DNA of 64,000 bases from Thermoanaerobaculia bacterium (lineage in GTDB: Bacteria > Acidobacteriota > Thermoanaerobaculia > UBA5066). Position 1 is the first letter of the stretch; each line of letters starts with the position of its first letter. Made by a program: the position numbers and the translations under genes. Of the stretch, positions 21,713-31,339 are shown in pieces. The stretch spans positions 1,600,001 to 1,664,000 of the forward strand of contig CAVRAY010000001.1 of the NCBI GenBank assembly GCA_963719225.1, given 5' to 3'. The notes beneath the pieces were generated by a model, which saw only the letters and a list, made by a program, of their open reading frames with translations, had not been told where the DNA came from and did no database searches.

Positions 21713-21842
21713 CTTCGGGAGCTCGTCCGGATTGCGGAGCGAGCCGCGATTATCAAGGTCCGCTCCGGCGAGGGCAAACGAGCCGGCGAAGCGCCTTGCC
21801 CCGTCCATCCGGGGCGTGTAACGTCATTCCGTCGGACGAGTG

Positions 21843-23597
21843 ATGGACACGAGCGGATACGAGTTTCCCGCCCGGCGGAACCTGCAAGTCTTCGCGTTCG
21901 ACCCGATGCGGGGCCGGACCGCCGGGAACCGCCTGACTCTGGGCGTCCCCTACGAACGCCTCGCTCCCGGGCCGCTCGGCCAGAGAGTGCAGGTGATCGA
22001 CTTCGACGGGACGAATCGCGTGTTCTACGTGCCCGTGGACCTCGAAGATCCCGCCGTCCTCATGAACGACGGCCTGCAGCCGTCCGAGTCGGACCCGCGC
22101 TTTCACCAGCAGATGGTCTACGCGGTGACGATGTCGGTCGTCGAGACGTTCGAGTCGGCCCTCGGGCGGAAGCTCGCTTTCCGCAGACAGAAGGCGCTGA
22201 GGCTCTTCCCGCATGCGTTCGAGGGAGAGAACGCCTTCTACGACCGGGAGCTCTCGGCCGTGCTCTTCGGGTTCTTCAAGGCCGACGAAAAGGATCCCGG
22301 CCCGAACCTCCCGGGCCAGACCGTCTTCACGTGTCTCTCGCACGACATCATCGCCCACGAGGTGACGCACGCGCTCGTCGATCGACTGAAGCCGTTTCTC
22401 ATCGAGGCCAGCAATCCCGACGTGTACGCGTTCCACGAGGGCTTTGCGGATCTCGTCGCCATCTTTCAGCACTTCACCTTGAAGGAGGTGCTGACCGATA
22501 CGATCCAGAAGACGCGGGGAGACCTCCGGTCGCCCGGGCCTCTCGCGGACCTCGCACAACAATTCGGTTACACGACGGGCCGCCGCGGAGCTCTCCGGAC
22601 GGCGATCGACAAGCCCGACCCGTCCCTGTATCGCACCTCGACGGAGCCGCACGAGAGGGGCTCGATCCTCGTCGCGGCGGTCTTCGACGCGTTCTTCGCC
22701 GTCTACCAGCGCCGCATCGAGGATCTGATCCGCATCGCCACGGGCGGAACCGGCCGGCTCCCCGAGGGCTACCTGCACCCCGATCTCGTGAACCGGATCG
22801 CGACCGAGGCCGCCAAGACCGCCCGGAATGTCCTGACGATGTGCGTGCGGGCCTTCGAATACCTGCCTCCGGTGGACGTGACCTACAGCGACTTCCTGCG
22901 TGCCGTCGTGACGGCCGACTTCGAGACCGTTCCCGCGGACGAGCGAGGCTTGCGCGCTTCGCTGATCGAGGCGTTCCGGCTCCGCGGGGTCTATCCGGAG
23001 GGGCAGGGGGTCGTTTCGCTCGCGGAGGAATCGCTCCTGTGGAGGCCTCCCGAGGGGCCCCTCAAGCTGCCTTTCGATCCTTCGCGGGAGGCCCTCGTCG
23101 TCAGCGCCCAGGCTTTCGACCGCGGACCGAGGCGGGGGGAGCCTTCGGCTCCCGGAGCGGACGAGCGAAGTGCTCTCGACCAATGGGCGGGCCTCCTCGG
23201 GGTCTTCGCGAGCGAGCATCGCCGCGAGCTGGGCCTCGACCCGGACGTCAAGCCCCGCCTCGAAGGCTTCCACACCGTCTTTCGCTTTTCGCCGGAGGGC
23301 CGCCTCGTCGTGGAGCTGGTCGCCCAGTTCGTCCAGGAAGACCACGAAGCCGAAAAGGACCCGGCCTACGGCGGCGTCAAGGTCCTGGGCGGCACGACGG
23401 TGATCGCGTCGGTCAACGGCGACATCCGTTACGTGATCGCCAAGCCCCTTACGAAAGAGCGGCGCGAGGTCCAGCTCGAATTCGCGGCGGCGAGTGACCG
23501 GGAGGATCCGATGCTCGCGTGCGGGCGGGAAGGCTACGAGGCGCATCGGCTGAGATTCCGGAACTTCGCGCGTTTGCACGCGTCGAGGCCGCGTTGA
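21843..23597 (+). CDS. Cytoplasmic gluzincin (M4/M36-like) metallopeptidase
   Basis: NAFY, HDIIAHEVTH (HExxH), AFHEGFAD (third ligand ExxxD), EPH; no signal peptide. Confidence 0.78.
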   Translation: MDTSGYEFPARRNLQVFAFDPMRGRTAGNRLTLGVPYERLAPGPLGQRVQVIDFDGTNRVFYVPVDLEDPAVLMNDGLQPSESDPRFHQQMVYAVTMSVVETFESALGRKLAFRRQKALRLFPHAFEGENAFYDRELSAVLFGFFKADEKDPGPNLPGQTVFTCLSHDIIAHEVTHALVDRLKPFLIEASNPDVYAFHEGFADLVAIFQHFTLKEVLTDTIQKTRGDLRSPGPLADLAQQFGYTTGRRGALRTAIDKPDPSLYRTSTEPHERGSILVAAVFDAFFAVYQRRIEDLIRIATGGTGRLPEGYLHPDLVNRIATEAAKTARNVLTMCVRAFEYLPPVDVTYSDFLRAVVTADFETVPADERGLRASLIEAFRLRGVYPEGQGVVSLAEESLLWRPPEGPLKLPFDPSREALVVSAQAFDRGPRRGEPSAPGADERSALDQWAGLLGVFASEHRRELGLDPDVKPRLEGFHTVFRFSPEGRLVVELVAQFVQEDHEAEKDPAYGGVKVLGGTTVIASVNGDIRYVIAKPLTKERREVQLEFAAASDREDPMLACGREGYEAHRLRFRNFARLHASRPR

Positions 23598-23604
23598 GGC
23601 GCCC

Positions 23605-24915
23605 ATGAGCGCGTCCCTTTCGGTCCGCATGTACGACGTGGGCTTCGGAGACTCCTTCCTGTTCACGTTCCCCGCCAAGGGCGGCCGGCGTCCGAAAGTC
23701 CTCGTGGACTGCGGAGTCCATCAGGGTGGACCGGGGCCGGTGCCGATGAAGAAGATCGTGGAAGCGATCGTCGAGGACGTGACGGAAAAGGGCCAGCCGC
23801 GCATCGACCTCGTCATCGCCACGCATCGGCACCGCGATCACGTCTCGGGCTTCGAGCAGGCCGCGTGGAAGGACGTGCGCGTGGACGAGGTCTGGATGCC
23901 GTGGACCGAGCATCCGACCGATCCGGAGGCGCGGGCGATCCGCGAAGCCCAGGCGAAGAAAGCGCAGAAACTGGCGCTGGCGTTCGCCCGCCTCGATCTG
24001 CCGGCCGATCAGAAGCAGTCCCTCCAGGCCGTGGCCGGGAACAACCTGACGAACGCGAAGGCGATGGAGACCCTCCACGAGGGGTTCAAGGGCGCGCCGG
24101 CCCGCCGTTTCCTGCCCGAGAAGGCCGGAGCACGCTCGTGGAAGGAGGACCGGCTGCCCGGCACGACCGTGCATCTCCTGGGGCCCTCCCGAAGCCGGGA
24201 CACCATCCGCGACATGAATCCGCCTCCTGACGAGAGCTTCCTTCGGGCAGCGGCCCTGGAAGCGGCTGGAAAGCTCCTTTCCCCGTTCGAATCGCGCTGG
24301 TACTTCTCCGCCGCCGGAAAGGACTTCGAGGCCTGGTGGTCGAGGCTCGCGCGCTCCCGTCATGAGAAACCGGACGAAGATCAGGACGCGAACCTCCGGC
24401 CCGATGATTCCCTCTTCGCGGCGCGGTGGCTCGACTTCGTGGGGCTCCGCCGCGCCGACCTGAAAGCTGTCGAGGAGAAGGGCAAGGACGATCCCTTCGC
24501 CGCGGCGGTCGCCCTCGAACAGGCGGTGAACGGCACGAGCCTGATGCTGATGCTCGAGATCGGCAAGGCGTTTCTCCTCCTTCCCGGCGACGCGCAATGG
24601 GGGACGTGGCACGAGGCGCTCGACGATGCCGACTCGGCCGAGCTCCTGAAGAAGACGACCTTCTACAAGGTGGGCCACCACGGCAGCCACAACGCCACGC
24701 CCGTCGACTTCGTGAAGCTGCTCAAGGGAGAGGGTCTCACCGCGATGGTCTCGACGGAGACGAAGCCGTTCGACACCATTCCCCGCCTGCCCCTCCTCGA
24801 AGCGCTGAAGGCGAAGTCGAAACGCATCGTGCGCAGCGACGACGCAAAGGCGGACGTGAAGCCGCCGTTCAAGCGCGTCGACGCGATCCGGACCGACCTC
24901 GAGCTCGCGGTCTAG
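23605..24915 (+). CDS. Metallo-beta-lactamase fold hydrolase, ComEC/Rec2-like
   Basis: DVGFGDS, LVDCG, THRHRDH, NGTS, LLPGDAQ, KVGHHGSHN. Confidence 0.82.
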   Translation: MSASLSVRMYDVGFGDSFLFTFPAKGGRRPKVLVDCGVHQGGPGPVPMKKIVEAIVEDVTEKGQPRIDLVIATHRHRDHVSGFEQAAWKDVRVDEVWMPWTEHPTDPEARAIREAQAKKAQKLALAFARLDLPADQKQSLQAVAGNNLTNAKAMETLHEGFKGAPARRFLPEKAGARSWKEDRLPGTTVHLLGPSRSRDTIRDMNPPPDESFLRAAALEAAGKLLSPFESRWYFSAAGKDFEAWWSRLARSRHEKPDEDQDANLRPDDSLFAARWLDFVGLRRADLKAVEEKGKDDPFAAAVALEQAVNGTSLMLMLEIGKAFLLLPGDAQWGTWHEALDDADSAELLKKTTFYKVGHHGSHNATPVDFVKLLKGEGLTAMVSTETKPFDTIPRLPLLEALKAKSKRIVRSDDAKADVKPPFKRVDAIRTDLELAV

Positions 24916-24934: not shown

Positions 24935-24963
24935 TTGACAGGTCCGTCTCCCGCGCCTAGGCT
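24935..24963 (+). promoter_or_regulatory. Sigma70-type promoter of the asd-lysC-dap operon
   Basis: TTGACA (24935-24940), 17-nt spacer, TAGGCT (24958-24963). Confidence 0.8.
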
Positions 24964-24973
24964 GCACGCCACG

Positions 24974-25051
24974 ATGAGCGCCCCCTGCGCCCGAAAGCGC
25001 AAGACCGCGAAGAAGACTACGCCGCAAGGCGGGCGATGGAGCGTTCTCTAA
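24974..25051 (+). CDS. Putative attenuation leader peptide MSAPCARKRKTAKKTTPQGGRWSVL
   Basis: 25-codon ORF right after the promoter with 4 Lys and 3 Thr codons clustered in KRKTAKKTT. Confidence 0.72.
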   Translation: MSAPCARKRKTAKKTTPQGGRWSVL

Positions 25052-25091
25052 GATCGACGTCTTTCGACGATCACCACGGAGACACACCAGG

Positions 25092-25122
25092 GGCCCGCCG
25101 GAAACGGCGGGCCTTTTCGTTT
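25092..25122 (+). terminator. Intrinsic terminator (attenuator) upstream of asd
   Basis: GGCCCGCCG-GAAA-CGGCGGGCC followed by TTTTCGTTT. Confidence 0.85.
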
Positions 25123-25137
25123 CGAGAAGGAGAACCC

Positions 25138-26217
25138 ATGGCGACCCCGAACGATTTCCGGATTCCGGTGGCGGTCCTCGGCGCGACGGGCGCCGTGGGA
25201 CAGCGCCTCGTCTCCCTGCTGGAGGGTCACCCGCGGTTCGTCCTCGCGGAGGTCGCGGCCTCGGAGAGATCGGCGGGGAAGCGCTACGCCGACGCGACGC
25301 GCTGGTTCCTGCCGGGCGACGTCCCGGCCGCCGCGCGCGACCTCGTCGTCACCTCCGTCGAAGACGAGCTGTCGTCGCCGCTCTGCCTGTCCGCGCTCGA
25401 TGCGGCCGTCGCGGACACCGTCGAGCCGCTCCAGGCCTCACGCGGGAAGCTCGTCGTCTCGAACACGAAGTCGTTCCGGATGAAGCCGGACGTCCCTCTC
25501 GTCATCCCGGAAGTGAACCCGGACCATCTCGCTCTTCTCGACGTGCAGTCGTGGCACGCCGCGGGCGGCGGCATCGTGACGAACCCGAACTGCTCCGTCG
25601 TGGGCCTCGCCATGGCGCTCGCGCCGCTCGAGCGCGCCTTCGGCGTCGGGCGCGTTTCGGTCACGACGATGCAGGCGCTCTCGGGAGCCGGCTATCCCGG
25701 AGTGGCATCGCTGGACGCGCAGGGCAACGTGATTCCGTTCATCGACGGCGAGGAGGAGAAGATCGAGAGGGAGCCGCGAAAGATCCTGGGTCGCCTCGTG
25801 AACGGGCGCGTCGTGGACGCGGACTTCCCGATCTCGGTTTCCGTGAACCGCGTGCCGGTGCGAGACGGCCACACGGAATCGGTCTTCGTCGATCTCAGGA
25901 ACAAGGCGTCTCTGGACGAGGTGCGCGGCGTGCTCGACGCTTTCACGGGAGAGCCGCAGCGGCTGAAGCTGCCCTCTGCTCCGGCGCGGCCGATCGTCGT
26001 CCGCGACGAGCGGGACCGGCCCCAGCCCGCGCGCGACGTCGACGCGGGAAACGGCATGACGGTGACGATCGGGCGCCTGCGGCCCGATCCCGCGTTCGAC
26101 TTCAAGTTCACCGTTCTCGTCCACAACACGGTACGCGGGGCGGCCGGAGCGGCCCTGCTCAACGCCGAGCTGCTCCTGGCGCAGGGGCGCGTCGTCTCGC
26201 GAGCTCCCGTGCGATGA
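25138..26217 (+). CDS. asd: Aspartate-semialdehyde dehydrogenase
   Basis: VLGATGAVGQ, TNPNCS, QALSGAGY, HNTVRGAAG; SD GAAGGAG; ATG at 25138. Confidence 0.95.
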   Translation: MATPNDFRIPVAVLGATGAVGQRLVSLLEGHPRFVLAEVAASERSAGKRYADATRWFLPGDVPAAARDLVVTSVEDELSSPLCLSALDAAVADTVEPLQASRGKLVVSNTKSFRMKPDVPLVIPEVNPDHLALLDVQSWHAAGGGIVTNPNCSVVGLAMALAPLERAFGVGRVSVTTMQALSGAGYPGVASLDAQGNVIPFIDGEEEKIEREPRKILGRLVNGRVVDADFPISVSVNRVPVRDGHTESVFVDLRNKASLDEVRGVLDAFTGEPQRLKLPSAPARPIVVRDERDRPQPARDVDAGNGMTVTIGRLRPDPAFDFKFTVLVHNTVRGAAGAALLNAELLLAQGRVVSRAPVR

Positions 26218-27578
26218 CCGACGTCCTCAAGTTCGGCGGGACGTCGGTGGGATCGGCCGAGCGGATCCGGGACGTCGCGCGCCTCGTCGAAACGCGCGGG
26301 GGAGAGCCGGGCCTCGTCGTCGTCTCGGCGATGGCCGGGGTGACGGACCTTCTGGTCGGATTGAAGAATTCTTCGAAAGAGAAGGAGCGGGCCGCTGCCG
26401 AGTCCGCGCTCGACGAGCTGGAAGGTCGCCACCGCGCGGCGCTCGATGGCCTTTCCCTTCCCGAAAGCGAGAAGCGGATCTGCGCCGTCGCGATCGACGA
26501 GGAGATGCGGCGATGCCGGGAGCTGTCTCTCGGGATCTCCCTACTCGAAGAAATCTCTCCTCGAACCTCGGATGCGCTCCTGGCGATCGGAGAATTGATC
26601 TGCTCGCGCCTCGTCGCCGCCGCGCTCCGCGCGAGCGGCGCGGAGGCCGTGTGGATCGATCCGCGCGACGTCCTCGCGACGGACCGCTCGTACGGCGCGG
26701 CGCTGGCGGACGAGAAGGAGACCGCGATCCGCGTGGCCAGGCACGTCGCGCCTCACCTCGCGGCGAGCCGGATCGTCGTCACGGGGGGCTTCGTCGGCGC
26801 CGCGCCGGACGGCTCGACGACGACCCTCGGCCGGGGAGGGTCGGACTACTCGGCCGCGCTCTTCGGCGCCGCGCTCCACGACATCGGGCGGTCCGTGGGC
26901 CGGATCGAGATCTGGACGGACGTGGACGGAATCCTGACCGCCGATCCACGCGTGGTTTCCGCGGCGCGGCTCGTGCCGGAGGTGAGCTATCCCGAGGCGG
27001 CCGAGCTGGCGTTCTTCGGAGCGAAGGTCCTCCATCCGGCCACGATCCGCCCGGCCGTGGCGCGCGGGATCCCGGTCGCCGTCAAGAACACGTTCCGCCC
27101 CGAATGCCCTGGAACCGTCGTGCGCCAGGACGTGCCCGGGAACGGCGTCCGGGCCGTCGCCATGCGCGGGGGGGTGACGGCGCTCTTCGTGGGCAGCCCG
27201 CGCATGCTGCTCGCCCACGGCTACGCGGCGAAGGTCTTCTCCGTCTTCGAGAAGCACGGCGTGCCGGTGGACGTCATCGCGACGAGCGAGGTCTCGATTT
27301 CCATCACGGTGAGCGAAAAGGCGCCCCTCGAAGGCGTCGTGCGCGACCTTTCCGAGTTCGCCGAGGTCTCGCTCCTCAAGCATCTCGCGGTCGTGTCCGT
27401 CGTCGGAAAGGGTCTGCGCTCGACGGCCGGGGTCGCCTTCCGGATCTTCGGCGCGGTCGGCGACGTGAACGTCGTCCTCATCTCGCAGGGCGCATCCGAC
27501 ACGAACGTGACTTTCGTGGTCGACGGAAACGACGCACCAGAAGCGCTGCGAAGGCTCCACAGGGAGTTCTTCGAATGA
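26214..27578 (+). CDS. lysC: Aspartokinase
   Basis: KFGGTSV, TLGRGGSDYSA, WTDVDG, FFGAKVLHP, two ACT domains. Confidence 0.95.
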   Translation: MTDVLKFGGTSVGSAERIRDVARLVETRGGEPGLVVVSAMAGVTDLLVGLKNSSKEKERAAAESALDELEGRHRAALDGLSLPESEKRICAVAIDEEMRRCRELSLGISLLEEISPRTSDALLAIGELICSRLVAAALRASGAEAVWIDPRDVLATDRSYGAALADEKETAIRVARHVAPHLAASRIVVTGGFVGAAPDGSTTTLGRGGSDYSAALFGAALHDIGRSVGRIEIWTDVDGILTADPRVVSAARLVPEVSYPEAAELAFFGAKVLHPATIRPAVARGIPVAVKNTFRPECPGTVVRQDVPGNGVRAVAMRGGVTALFVGSPRMLLAHGYAAKVFSVFEKHGVPVDVIATSEVSISITVSEKAPLEGVVRDLSEFAEVSLLKHLAVVSVVGKGLRSTAGVAFRIFGAVGDVNVVLISQGASDTNVTFVVDGNDAPEALRRLHREFFE

Positions 27579-28267
27579 AAGCCCTTCTGGTCGGATACGG
27601 GAAGATGGGGAAAGCCATCGAGATGGCGCTGATCCACAGCGGGCACGAAGTCGCCGGACGGTTGGGGCGCAAAGAGATTTCGGACTTTCCGATCTGCGAA
27701 GTCGCCTTTGAGTTCACCACGCCCGCCTCCGCTCCTCTGGTGGTCCCCCTTCTCCTTTCTCAGAAAATCCCGGTCGTCTCCGGGACGACCGGCTGGGACA
27801 CGACTTCGGCCGCGCACCTCGCACGGGAACAAAAGACTCTTTTTCTTCACTCCTCGAATTTTTCCCTAGGCGTCGCCGCGCTCAGGCGCGCGGTCGCCGC
27901 CGCTGCCGCCGCTCTCGCGCCGTTCTCCGAGTTCGAGCCGGGAATCGTGGAGCGGCATCACGCGGCCAAGAAAGACTCCCCCTCGGGAACCGCACGCACC
28001 CTCGCGCTCGACATCACGCGCGAGCCTCTCTCGAAGAGGTCCATCCCGATCGTCTCCCTCAGGCAGGGCGGCCAGCCGGGAGAGCATTCGGTCTACTTCG
28101 AGGGCACGGACGAGACGCTGGAGCTCGTGCACCGCGCCCGCTCGCGTTCGATCTTTGCGCTTGGCGCCGTGCGCGCCGCGGAATGGATGATCGACTCGGG
28201 CCGCTCGGGCCCGGTGACCTTCGACGAATTCTTCGACGATCTGTCGCTCAAGGGAGGCACTTCATGA
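27575..28267 (+). CDS. dapB: 4-hydroxy-tetrahydrodipicolinate reductase
   Basis: GYGKMG, VSGTTG, NFSLG, ERHHAAKKDSPSGTA. Confidence 0.94.
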   Translation: MKALLVGYGKMGKAIEMALIHSGHEVAGRLGRKEISDFPICEVAFEFTTPASAPLVVPLLLSQKIPVVSGTTGWDTTSAAHLAREQKTLFLHSSNFSLGVAALRRAVAAAAAALAPFSEFEPGIVERHHAAKKDSPSGTARTLALDITREPLSKRSIPIVSLRQGGQPGEHSVYFEGTDETLELVHRARSRSIFALGAVRAAEWMIDSGRSGPVTFDEFFDDLSLKGGTS

Positions 28268-29232
28268 TTACGTCAGCACCCGGGCAGAACTCTTCATCCT
28301 CCAGGAATCTCCCTCTCTCCGGGGTCTTCACCGCGATCGTCACGCCGTTTCGCGACGACGGGTCCGTCGACGAAGCGGGCCTCCGCCGGCTCGCGAAACG
28401 CCAGATCGAGGGCGGCGTCGCGGGTCTCGTCCCGTGCGGGACGACGGGCGAAGCCGTCACGCTGGACGCCGAGGAGCACGAGCGTGTCGTCGCCATCGTC
28501 GCCGAGGAGGCGCGGACGTCGTCGCGGCGCGTCACGGTGATCGCGGGCTGCGGCTCGAACGACACGCGGAAGTCACAGGCTCTCGCCGAACGGTGCCGTC
28601 GGGCGGGCGCCGACGCGCTTCTCGTCGTCACGCCTTACTACAACAAGCCCACGCCGAGAGGCCTGGTCGCGCACTTCCTGGCCGTCGCCGACGCGGGACG
28701 CCTGCCGCTCGTTCTTTACAACGTGCCGGGACGCACCGGACTGAACATGCAGCCGGACACCATTCTCGAGCTCGCGAAGGACCCGCGCATCGTCGCCGTG
28801 AAGGAAGCTTCGGGCAGCCTCGACCAGGCCTGCGAGATCCTCCGCGCCCGTCCGGCCGGATTCACCGTCCTCTCCGGCGAGGACTCGCTGGCGATCCCGA
28901 TGATCTCCTGCGGCGCCGAGGGCGTGATCGCGGTCGTCTCGAACGAGGCCCCCGGTCTTTACGCGGAGGCGATTGCCGCGGCCCTCGCCGGGAATCGCGC
29001 GCGCGCGTCGGAGCTCCAGGCAAAGATCTTCCCGCTCATGAAAGCGAATTTCCGCGAATCGAATCCGATCCCGGTCAAGTGGGCTCTCGAGCGGCTCGGC
29101 CTGATCGGGGGCGCGCTGCGTCTCCCGCTCGTTCCGCTCTCGCCGCAGCACCAAGCCCCGGTCGAGGAGGCGCTCAGGACCGCCGGTCTCCTCGATGCCG
29201 CGGGCAAGCCGGTCGAGATGGCGGCCGCGTGA
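28264..29232 (+). CDS. dapA: 4-hydroxy-tetrahydrodipicolinate synthase
   Basis: CGTTGE, PYYNKP, LYNVPGRT, VKEASG, SNPIPVK. Confidence 0.95.
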   Translation: MITSAPGQNSSSSRNLPLSGVFTAIVTPFRDDGSVDEAGLRRLAKRQIEGGVAGLVPCGTTGEAVTLDAEEHERVVAIVAEEARTSSRRVTVIAGCGSNDTRKSQALAERCRRAGADALLVVTPYYNKPTPRGLVAHFLAVADAGRLPLVLYNVPGRTGLNMQPDTILELAKDPRIVAVKEASGSLDQACEILRARPAGFTVLSGEDSLAIPMISCGAEGVIAVVSNEAPGLYAEAIAAALAGNRARASELQAKIFPLMKANFRESNPIPVKWALERLGLIGGALRLPLVPLSPQHQAPVEEALRTAGLLDAAGKPVEMAAA

Positions 29233-29996
29233 CGCGCGAGGAGGTCGTGGCTCTTCTCGAGGCGCTCGAGCGCGGCGAGGTCCGCGCGGCTTCTTCTGAC
29301 GCCGAGGGAAACTGGGTTGCCAACGCGGGCGTCAAGGAGGGCATCCTCGAGGCCTTCCGGCTCGGCGTCGAAGAGCCGAGCGAGGCCGGCCCGCTGCTCT
29401 TCCGGGACCGCGACACGCTGCCACCCCGCCGGCCTCTTCCCGAAGGCGTGCGCGTCGTCCCGGGCGGGACGGCGCTTCGCCGCGGCGCGTTTCTCGCGAG
29501 GGGCGTCGTCGTGATGCCGCCCGCCTACGTGAACGTGGGCGCGTACGTCGACGAGGGATCGATGATCGACAGCCATGCGCTCGTGGGCTCCTGCGCGCAG
29601 ATCGGGAAGAAGGTCCACCTCTCGGCGGCCGCGCAGGTGGGCGGCGTCCTCGAGCCCGTGGGCGCGGTCCCCGTCGTCATCGAGGACGAAGTCTTCGTGG
29701 GCGGCGGTGCCGGGATCTACGAAGGCGTCCGCGTGAGGAAGCGAGCCGTCCTCGCGGCGGGCGTCATCCTGACGGCCTCGAGCGTCGTGTTCGATCCCGT
29801 GAACGAGCGGGAGCTGCGCTCGGCGCCGGGCCGCCCGCTCGTCATCCCCGAGGGCGCCGTCGTCGTCCCGGGCTCGAGGCGGGCCTCGGGCGCCTGGGCG
29901 GAGGCCCGGGGGCTTTCGCTCTCGGCTCCGATCATCGTGAAGTATCGCGACGCGAAGACGGACGCGAGGACGGTGCTCGAGAGCGCGCTGCGGTGA
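29229..29996 (+). CDS. dapD: Tetrahydrodipicolinate N-succinyltransferase
   Basis: YVNVGAYVDEG, VGSCAQIG, GGVLEP hexapeptide region. Confidence 0.92.
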   Translation: MTREEVVALLEALERGEVRAASSDAEGNWVANAGVKEGILEAFRLGVEEPSEAGPLLFRDRDTLPPRRPLPEGVRVVPGGTALRRGAFLARGVVVMPPAYVNVGAYVDEGSMIDSHALVGSCAQIGKKVHLSAAAQVGGVLEPVGAVPVVIEDEVFVGGGAGIYEGVRVRKRAVLAAGVILTASSVVFDPVNERELRSAPGRPLVIPEGAVVVPGSRRASGAWAEARGLSLSAPIIVKYRDAKTDARTVLESALR

Positions 29997-30076
29997 AGCG
30001 AAGAGAAGAGATTTGCACGCGGCCTTCGGCCGCGCGACCGGGGAGTCGGAGAAGATTTCTTAGAAGGGAATAGGGA

Positions 30077-31339
30077 TTGCCGGACTCCGTTTTGCGTCGT
30101 GCCGCGAGTCTCTTCGGAACGCCGCTGTATCTGTACGACTTCGATGTGATCGAACGCCAGGTGTTGCGCCTCAGGCACGCCCTCGGCCCCCGCTTCGAGC
30201 TCGCGTATGCGGTCAAGGCCAACCCCTCGCTCGGAATTCTTTCCTTTCTAAGAAAATTCGGTCTCTCCTCGGACGTCGCGTCCCGGGGCGAGCTGCTCGC
30301 GGTGCGCCTGGCCGGATGTCCACCTTCCAAGATCCTCTCGACCGGCCCCGCGAAAACCGACGCCGACCTCGAAGCGCTCGTGCGCGCTCGAGTGTCGATT
30401 GTCCATGCGGAGGGTGAATGGGAGCTCGAACGCCTCGAGGAACTGGCAAGACGCCTGAGAAGGCAAGTTCCCGTGGGCCTTCGCCTGAACCCGCCCTGGG
30501 GCATTGCCGAAAAGCGCGTCATCATCGGTGGCCCCGGCGCGAAGAAGTTCGGATTCGACTTGAAGAGCGCGAGAGACGTTCTTCGAACGACGAAGAAATT
30601 CCCGCATCTCGACGTCTGCGGCTTTCAGGTGTTCAACGCCTCGAACGTCCTCGACGCGCGGCTCCTCGTCGAGAACACGCGTCGCGTGCTCGACCTCGCT
30701 CTTTCACTTTCGAAGAAATACGGCGTTCCGCTCCGCTCCGTGGATTTCGGTGGCGGCTTCGGCGTGCCATACGCCGGAAGAGAAAGACCACTGGATCTAG
30801 GAGTTCTTGGAAAGGGGCTGAGGGAGGTCGCGAAGGAGGCGCGCTCGAGCGGCCTGCCCGACTCGACTCGCCTCGTGTTCGAGCCCGGGCGCTTTCTCGT
30901 GGCCGAAAGCGGAACGTACCTCGTGAAGGTTCTGGGGACGAAACGGAGCCGCGGCGTCGACTACGTCCTCATGGATGGCGGTGTCCACCACTTCCTCCGC
31001 CCGGTCCTCCTCGGAACTCCCCACCGCGTCAGGCTCGTCAAAGGAACGGCGGGCGCTCGCGGCGGCCGGTCTTCACCTTCTAAGAAATCTCTGGTTCTTT
31101 CCGGTCCCCTCTGTACGTCTCTCGACATCCTCCATCCGGCCGCGCACCTCCCGCTCCCCGCCCGTGGCGACCTCCTCGCCTTCGAGAAAGCGGGCGCCTA
31201 CGGCTTCACCGAGTCGATGCCGCTCTTCCTCTCGCACGCGTGGCCGGCCGAGGTCGCCGTGTGGAAAGGTCGAATCACTCTCCTGAGGAGGCCGCCGACG
31301 GTGGAATCGCTCCTTCGTGCGCAGAGGCGGCAGGTGTGA
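30077..31339 (+). CDS. Fold-type III PLP decarboxylase, diaminopimelate decarboxylase-like (atypical motifs)
   Basis: YAVKANP, KFG, DFGGGFG, EPGRFLV, GPLCTSLD, GAYG; downstream of the dap genes. Confidence 0.8.
   Translation: MPDSVLRRAASLFGTPLYLYDFDVIERQVLRLRHALGPRFELAYAVKANPSLGILSFLRKFGLSSDVASRGELLAVRLAGCPPSKILSTGPAKTDADLEALVRARVSIVHAEGEWELERLEELARRLRRQVPVGLRLNPPWGIAEKRVIIGGPGAKKFGFDLKSARDVLRTTKKFPHLDVCGFQVFNASNVLDARLLVENTRRVLDLALSLSKKYGVPLRSVDFGGGFGVPYAGRERPLDLGVLGKGLREVAKEARSSGLPDSTRLVFEPGRFLVAESGTYLVKVLGTKRSRGVDYVLMDGGVHHFLRPVLLGTPHRVRLVKGTAGARGGRSSPSKKSLVLSGPLCTSLDILHPAAHLPLPARGDLLAFEKAGAYGFTESMPLFLSHAWPAEVAVWKGRITLLRRPPTVESLLRAQRRQV

Follow-up and report, generated by a model that had tools for sequence, protein, structure and literature searches.

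A probable leader-peptide attenuator with Lys, Thr and Met codons upstream of the asd-lysC-dap operon in Thermoanaerobaculia

The asd-lysC-dapB-dapA-dapD-lysA operon of a Thermoanaerobaculia bacterium is preceded by a short leader whose sequence makes it very probably a classical ribosome-mediated transcription attenuator working by tRNA charging. We observe this leader before asd in 50 genomes from two Thermoanaerobaculia (Acidobacteriota) families. A promoter, an in-frame start, a codon block, an antiterminator core and a predicted terminator are kept in these genomes and substitutions favour the amino acids of the pathway, which fits the classical attenuation geometry proposed by a sequence-only reading of this DNA. 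On the best reading of the codons, the attenuator senses mainly Lys, also Thr and, in most relatives, Met.

Layout of the leader and its operon

The window analyzed is a stretch of 64,000 nucleotides (assembly GCA_963719225.1, contig CAVRAY010000001.1, positions 1,600,001 to 1,664,000), and positions below are counted from its first base. The leader and the genes that follow it contain these features:

24935..24940, + strand: −35 box TTGACA, with a spacing of 17-18 nt to the −10 box in 48/50 leaders
24958..24963, + strand: −10 box TAGGCT (YAnnnT in relatives), 17 nt after the −35 box in this copy
24974..25051, + strand: leader ORF MSAPCARKRKTAKKTTPQGGRWSVL*, 25 codons, ATG at 24974, near-leaderless and with no Shine-Dalgarno sequence
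24992..24997, + strand: CGA-AAG, a rare Arg codon and the first Lys codon, invariant in the alignment columns
24995..25021, + strand: putative sensing codons K-R-K-T-A-K-K-T-T, from codon counts and a substitution test
25020..25031, + strand: predicted protector/pause hairpin (region 1:2), CGCC-GCAA-GGCG, −7.4 kcal/mol in this copy
25028..25034, + strand: antiterminator core (region 2) GGCGGGC, complementary to GCCCGCC at 25093-25099
25052..25072, + strand: predicted spacer hairpin within the antiterminator loop, GATCG/CGATC stem with G-U variants in genus g1
25092..25113, + strand: intrinsic-terminator-like hairpin (regions 3:4), −24 kcal/mol
25114..25122, + strand: interrupted U-tract TTTTCGTTT, read from the sequence
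25128..25132, + strand: Shine-Dalgarno sequence AGGAG of asd, read from the sequence
25138..26217, + strand: asd, aspartate-semialdehyde dehydrogenase, the genome's only asd match (profile match)
26214..27578, + strand: lysC, aspartokinase closest to the lysine-sensitive AK III (profile match)
27575..28267, + strand: dapB (profile match)
28264..29232, + strand: dapA, start approximate (profile match)
29229..29996, + strand: dapD (profile match)
30077..31339, + strand: lysA-like PLP decarboxylase (profile match)

The sequence-only reading had described the promoter as TTGACA-N17-TAGGCT, and we find it base for base; the 25-residue ORF with KRKTAKKTT and both arms of the GGCGGGC/GCCCGCC complementarity likewise lie exactly where they had been placed. 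Overlooked in that reading were the lack of a Shine-Dalgarno sequence at the leader ORF and its start about 3 nt past the likely transcription start, which would fall near 24970. It had also described a strong terminator just before the Shine-Dalgarno sequence of asd. The stem, at −24 kcal/mol, deserves the word, but the U-tract is interrupted and does not, since a consensus scanner run on the leader region called no terminator (and no promoter). The fold of the leader is more stable than chance (z = −2.7), and of the genome's 9.5 million six-frame windows of nine codons only 401 contain at least 7 Lys or Thr.

In the genes downstream, lysC, dapB and lysA gave their top scores on these families at values slightly below the NCBIfam cut-offs, and lysC clears the general aspartokinase model. 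Absent from the six operon genes (25138-31339) are dapE and dapF. The closest named relatives of asd belong to Thermoanaerobaculia, Acidobacteriota. Just upstream of the leader (21840-24915) lies a two-gene unit that is missing upstream of asd in most relatives and is possibly a mobile defence-type locus. Its 585-aa protein has no NCBIfam match and carries an HEVTH zinc-peptidase-like motif by eye, and its 436-aa protein is of the MBL fold with weak matches to Avs1a, ComEC and 6A-MBL models.

Conservation across genomes

A first survey of 30 asd loci from 41 related genomes recovered the leader in 22/22 other g1 loci having upstream sequence and in 2 g3 loci; one further g1 locus, L018, ends at a contig edge and was not counted. 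All four asd loci of family f2 (L027-L030) are without it, including L028 from the unpublished genome G025, which was used solely as a negative. Among 17 further loci in a second survey, 4 from g10 and g13 carried the leader, and the asd loci of g12 and 12 of family f5 (L036-L047) did not. We then built a covariance model from 29 leaders and ran it over 100 genomes of the order, where it matched beside asd in 43 of the 47 other genomes of family f1 and in 3 of the 7 of family f3; 21 of the asd-adjoining matches lay outside the training set. Altogether, this comparison of asd upstream regions in relatives, which the sequence-only reading had suggested, finds a conserved leader with Lys/Thr codons in 50 genomes.

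Family f2 gave 12 matches to the model, all weak, and none of the three inspected was at asd. A second match in the window's genome and non-asd matches below about 42 bits were rejected as further copies; the seven inspected were three groEL terminators, two pheA leaders and two unrelated sequences. Twelve RNA runs showed small shares, and the four that were aligned all gave contigs of relatives; two of these cover the leader but are neutral on its transcription, since they continue across the promoter and could derive from DNA.

Beyond these families, a simple screen of 63 distant asd loci identified 6 with a Lys-containing leader and a terminator, all from Acidobacteriota and including Vicinamibacterales. 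CGAAAG is kept in five of the six. Their antiterminator arm GTCGG faces CCGAC in the 5′ arm of the terminator, so that by eye both sides differ from those of the window's family. The asd leader of L154, also from Vicinamibacterales, has the same type of terminator with Thr/Met codons and no Lys, and may be another retuned variant.

Frame and codon selection in the leader ORF

We chose the start codon from the promoter alone, as the first ATG or GTG past the −10 box. In all 50 leaders this codon follows the box by 7-10 nt, so by standard promoter spacing transcription likely starts 1-4 nt before it, and no SD-like word precedes it in any of the 50. The start so chosen is in frame with CGA-AAG (Arg-Lys) in 50/50 leaders; the distance between them falls into seven length classes (9, 18, 21, 24, 27, 30 or 39 nt), while that from stop to terminator varies freely between 26 and 41. 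The start and frame kept throughout, together with synonymous changes, point to coding constraint on this short upstream ORF.

The nine codons after CGA are rich in end products of the pathway. They average 2.9 Lys, 3.1 Thr and 0.9 Met in g1 and 2.5 Lys, 3.2 Thr and 0.9 Met in g13, and contain 5 Lys with no Thr or Met in 3 genomes of g3. The share of K/T/M/I is 0.56-0.83 in 8 of 9 genera and 0.33 in g10. The copy in the window has no internal Met, unlike the mean of 0.9 in g1 and g13. The g10 locus L031 (genome G075) has a 38-codon leader with only 2 Lys and a very long GC-rich antiterminator helix; it fits the stalling model described below poorly and is either degenerate or differently tuned.

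Substitutions point to selection for these codons. Parsimony on the asd tree, run with 26 of the 27 g1 leaders, places 12 non-synonymous events at the Lys codons of the leader; 11 of them led to Thr or Met, compared with 1 of 30 at the Lys codons of asd itself, which change mostly to Arg (Fisher p 3e-8, a guide only, because event counts can be inflated when parsimony uses a single gene tree). The sensing block of the same 26 genomes also shows 8 synonymous events.

Predicted RNA structures and ribosome stalling

For the first 29 leaders, the predicted stem energies of the terminator span −19.5 to −26.6 kcal/mol, and 5-9 T occur in the 11 nt past its core arm across the 50. The antiterminator core spans 7 bp in 44/50 leaders and 5-6 bp in the others, in a set extracted with patterns that required the antiterminator and terminator cores. 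Compensatory changes, which the sequence-only reading had named as a check, are found in one of the two stems: the two outer pairs of the terminator co-vary, being kept in 50/50 leaders as G-C, G-U, A-U or C-G, but the antiterminator core shows no covariation. Within the class, the antiterminator and terminator cores can give none because they are almost invariant. A weak 1:2 hairpin that could act as protector or pause is predicted in 47/50 leaders. A longer extension of the antiterminator was rejected as a conserved helix. Its cognate partner is the best in only 3 of 9 lineages, it does no better than shuffles in the window's genome (p 0.27), and it beats them only in g3 (p 0.03) and g11 (p 0.007). 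Apart from the terminator, nothing resembling a conserved aptamer was seen in the folds.

Folding of the alternative structures, likewise suggested by the sequence-only reading, was modelled on nascent RNA ending in the terminator loop, with the ribosome footprint masked and the RNA 5′ of it left free. In this model a stalled ribosome frees an antiterminator that excludes the terminator. With a footprint of −15/+12, the mean probability of the antiterminator is 0.79-0.94 when the A-site is 4-13 codons before the first Gly codon, and falls to 0 from 2 codons before it onward; a larger footprint moves the boundary for antiterminator formation from 4 to at least 5 codons. Naked nascent RNA of the window's copy gives a probability of 0.94, which for a start-codon mutant predicts read-through and not super-attenuation. 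The K/T/M codons sit at −12 to −3 relative to the first Gly, just upstream of this switching boundary. For the window's copy, stalls at K8, K10, K13 and K14 give an antiterminator probability of 1.0, and those at T11 and T15 only 0.65 and 0.41. T16 blocks the antiterminator. Lys is therefore likely the main signal here, T16 being too near to free the antiterminator and T11 and T15 acting in part. The Lys+Thr sensing proposed by the sequence-only reading fits the codons of the family, which read as Lys, Thr and Met, and is weakened for Thr in the window's copy. With a ribosome at the stop codon, the model still lets the antiterminator form in 13-16 of the 50 leaders. Folding of the full-length RNA always favours the terminator, and the switch must therefore be kinetic.

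The invariant CGA-AAG

All 50 leaders share CGA-AAG down to the nucleotide, and CGA makes up only 4.7% of the Arg codons of the genome. Hungry-codon sensing alone does not explain this. Both tRNA-Arg(UCG) and tRNA-Lys(CUU) are present. PMC5009743 describes CGA-AAG as a programmed −1 frameshift site in B. subtilis cdd and in IS1222. A −1 frameshift into asd was nevertheless rejected, with asd lying in frames 0, 1 and 2 in 16, 17 and 16 of the 50 leaders (1 not scored). Two RNA-level candidates were also discarded: pairing of CGAAAG with the U-tract or spacer gives weak duplexes at varying positions, and a C(GAAA)G tetraloop reaches P > 0.5 in only 7/50 leaders.

Sensing codons and pathway content

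The product of Asd feeds the synthesis of Lys, Thr and Met. The genome has a single asd, its second aspartokinase sits with thrB and thrC in a separate operon that has no leader, and its homoserine dehydrogenase gene is separate from the asd operon; Asd therefore serves synthesis of all three amino acids. (A transposase-like ORF lies right after the homoserine dehydrogenase gene, at L051 2376-3386, G000:C1 near 1966236.) Multivalent sensing is proposed because this only asd supplies lysine, threonine and methionine, and the sensing codons appear, from sequence comparison, to track pathway content. Homoserine dehydrogenase was matched in 0/4 genomes of g3, the lineage with Lys-only leaders, versus 45/47 genomes of f1. 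Two of the four g3 genomes are 97-98% complete. The g3 genomes G026 and G028 have one aspartokinase each, and G028 has one ThrC-family match above cut-off, which scores about as high as the non-operon paralogue of f1. The link between a Lys-only leader and the missing homoserine dehydrogenase comes from one lineage and is a single evolutionary contrast, not a statistical test.

As an internal control, we screened for a similar leader at a methionine gene, and a leader with Met/Cys codons precedes metY in 25/26 genomes of the lineage:

G000:C1:3564601-3564835 (L052/L191): leader of metY (O-acetylhomoserine sulfhydrylase), with relatives at L192-L216

It has the same layout of promoter and start, a strong terminator, no Shine-Dalgarno sequence, a CMCMCSM core and no Rfam match, and is likely a second uncatalogued attenuator. 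We also observed a short Tyr/Phe leader ORF (MSRYRTLSF...) with a terminator at two family-f2 loci, L107 (G152:C4:316711-316857) and L108 (G212:C215:725-825). The gene behind it resembles prephenate dehydratase by eye, which makes it a probable Phe/Tyr attenuator.

Proposed mechanism and alternative explanations

In the mechanism we favour, the ribosome would load without a Shine-Dalgarno sequence on the ATG, because transcription probably starts only about 3 nt before it. When charged tRNA-Lys is scarce (or tRNA-Thr, or in most relatives tRNA-Met), a stall is expected at codons 8-15, where the footprint of the ribosome would open the 1:2 hairpin and free GGCGGGC, which could then capture GCCCGCC before the 3′ arm of the terminator is made, allowing transcription of asd-lysC-dapB-dapA-dapD-lysA. 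With charged tRNAs available, the ribosome would translate through the Gly-Gly codons, approach the stop and mask the core, leaving the 25092-25113 hairpin and the U-tract to end transcription before asd.

The same attenuator could instead sense lysine alone, with Thr and Met as tolerated neighbours of AAG (ACG, ATG) in an RNA-level A-x-G pattern. These three codons differ at the middle base alone, Lys is the only invariant sensing codon, and the operon is that of the lysine pathway; T16 is badly placed in the window's copy and the aspartokinase-thrB-thrC operon has no leader. However, an A-x-G pattern would allow AGG (Arg) equally, and K changed to R in 1 event versus 11 to Met or Thr. Thr codons also swap synonymously among ACG, ACC and ACT, and Thr/Met codons are missing exactly where no homoserine dehydrogenase was found. 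We therefore hold lysine-only sensing to be unlikely, and multivalent sensing, with Thr and Met as further inputs beside Lys, to be reasonably probable. A TnaC- or SpeFL-like arrest peptide, in which Arg-Lys-Arg or the rare CGA would pause the ribosome in response to a free metabolite or general translation speed and act through the same terminator, could account for CGA-AAG in all 50 leaders and in 5 distant Acidobacteriota ones despite the rarity of CGA. Outside these elements, however, the peptide shows little conservation from genus to genus, and its changes follow amino-acid identity (K/T/M) and pathway content, so this reading seems very improbable.

Two further explanations do without ribosome-controlled termination. 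The hairpin and its TTTCG tail could sequester the ribosome-binding site of asd and control translation initiation, as the interrupted U-tract and the pairing of the tail with CGAGAA beside the Shine-Dalgarno sequence in the window's predicted fold would permit. Yet that Shine-Dalgarno sequence lies tens of bases past the hairpin in g13, g10, g69 and g70, and the groEL terminators of these genomes share the same style of stem and tail, so such control is scarcely to be expected. That the leader is a metabolite-binding riboswitch or protein-binding RNA with an incidental ORF is harder still to credit and extremely unlikely. Nucleotide conservation is high within g1 and there is a weak, sub-threshold Rfam Moco match (25 bits versus a cut-off of 36), but the length changes preserve the frame, start and stop are conserved, synonymous changes occur and the codons are biased, and no aptamer-like fold is conserved past the terminator.

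Relation to known regulatory leaders

Our preferred reading, attenuation by tRNA charging, has close counterparts. The thrL leader of E. coli is a multivalent Thr/Ile attenuator of the thr operon. It resembles the present leader in its short ORF with pathway codons, in Gly codons that overlap one arm of the antiterminator, in a terminator (predicted here) ahead of an operon of the aspartate pathway, and in multivalency (proposed here); it differs in that Lys is the signal kept constant in the present leader, the genes that follow are asd-lysC-dapBAD-lysA, and there is neither a Shine-Dalgarno sequence nor an Rfam match. The aminoadipate-pathway lysine operon of Thermus thermophilus reportedly has a leader-peptide attenuator with Lys codons alone. 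As so described, it likewise attenuates lysine biosynthesis through Lys codons in a leader peptide, but it belongs to another phylum and to the aminoadipate rather than the DAP pathway, and the codons observed here are not only Lys.

Genes of the lysC/asd/dap type are described in PMC2659441 and PMC1262725 as controlled by the lysine riboswitch (L-box) through a terminator or RBS switch. Free lysine is there bound by an aptamer of about 180 nt, unlike the window's leader. We found no match to this riboswitch (RF00168) in 41 genomes of the order (the window's and 40 others), and the control matched in 4 of 14. Rfam gave nothing at the gathering cut-off on the leader (best leader family Trp_leader, 12.8 bits versus 41) and no match on 5 other leader loci. 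Similar in form are the uORF of Corynebacterium ilvB-II (PMC10272879) and the cys leaders of Mycobacterium (PMC1262725), with a conserved uORF, lengths in multiples of three and pathway-product codons in high-GC bacteria; those serve other amino acids and operons, and the cys leaders have no terminators. PMC1262725 reports that the lysine, threonine and methionine operons of Actinobacteria are not preceded by conserved RNA elements, and PMC2965389 that attenuators predicted in Acidobacteria almost all lack function. Full-text literature yielded no Lys-codon attenuator before asd/lysC/dap or in Acidobacteriota; the subscription surveys (Vitreschak 2004, Lopatovskaya 2010) and supplements, which lie outside this scope, may list one. 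The mechanism is textbook and the sequence family is uncatalogued.

Implications for Acidobacteriota

A bolder extension is that the leader belongs to an old Acidobacteriota-wide near-leaderless family, in which the sensing codons are rewired per lineage to what Asd feeds and CGA-AAG is a ribosome brake or second metabolite input. Such a hybrid of tRNA charging and arrest, replacing the lysine riboswitch in the phylum, is an idea we consider quite unlikely. For the attenuator itself, the metY and pheA leaders taken together with it suggest that Thermoanaerobaculia use near-leaderless uORF attenuators instead of L-box and S-box riboswitches. If true, it would explain the regulation of the DAP/lysine pathway in a large soil phylum that has no lysine riboswitches and would add to leader-peptide attenuation a case in which Lys, Thr and Met are sensed together at the branch-point enzyme they share, with a natural experiment in which the sensor codons follow pathway loss.
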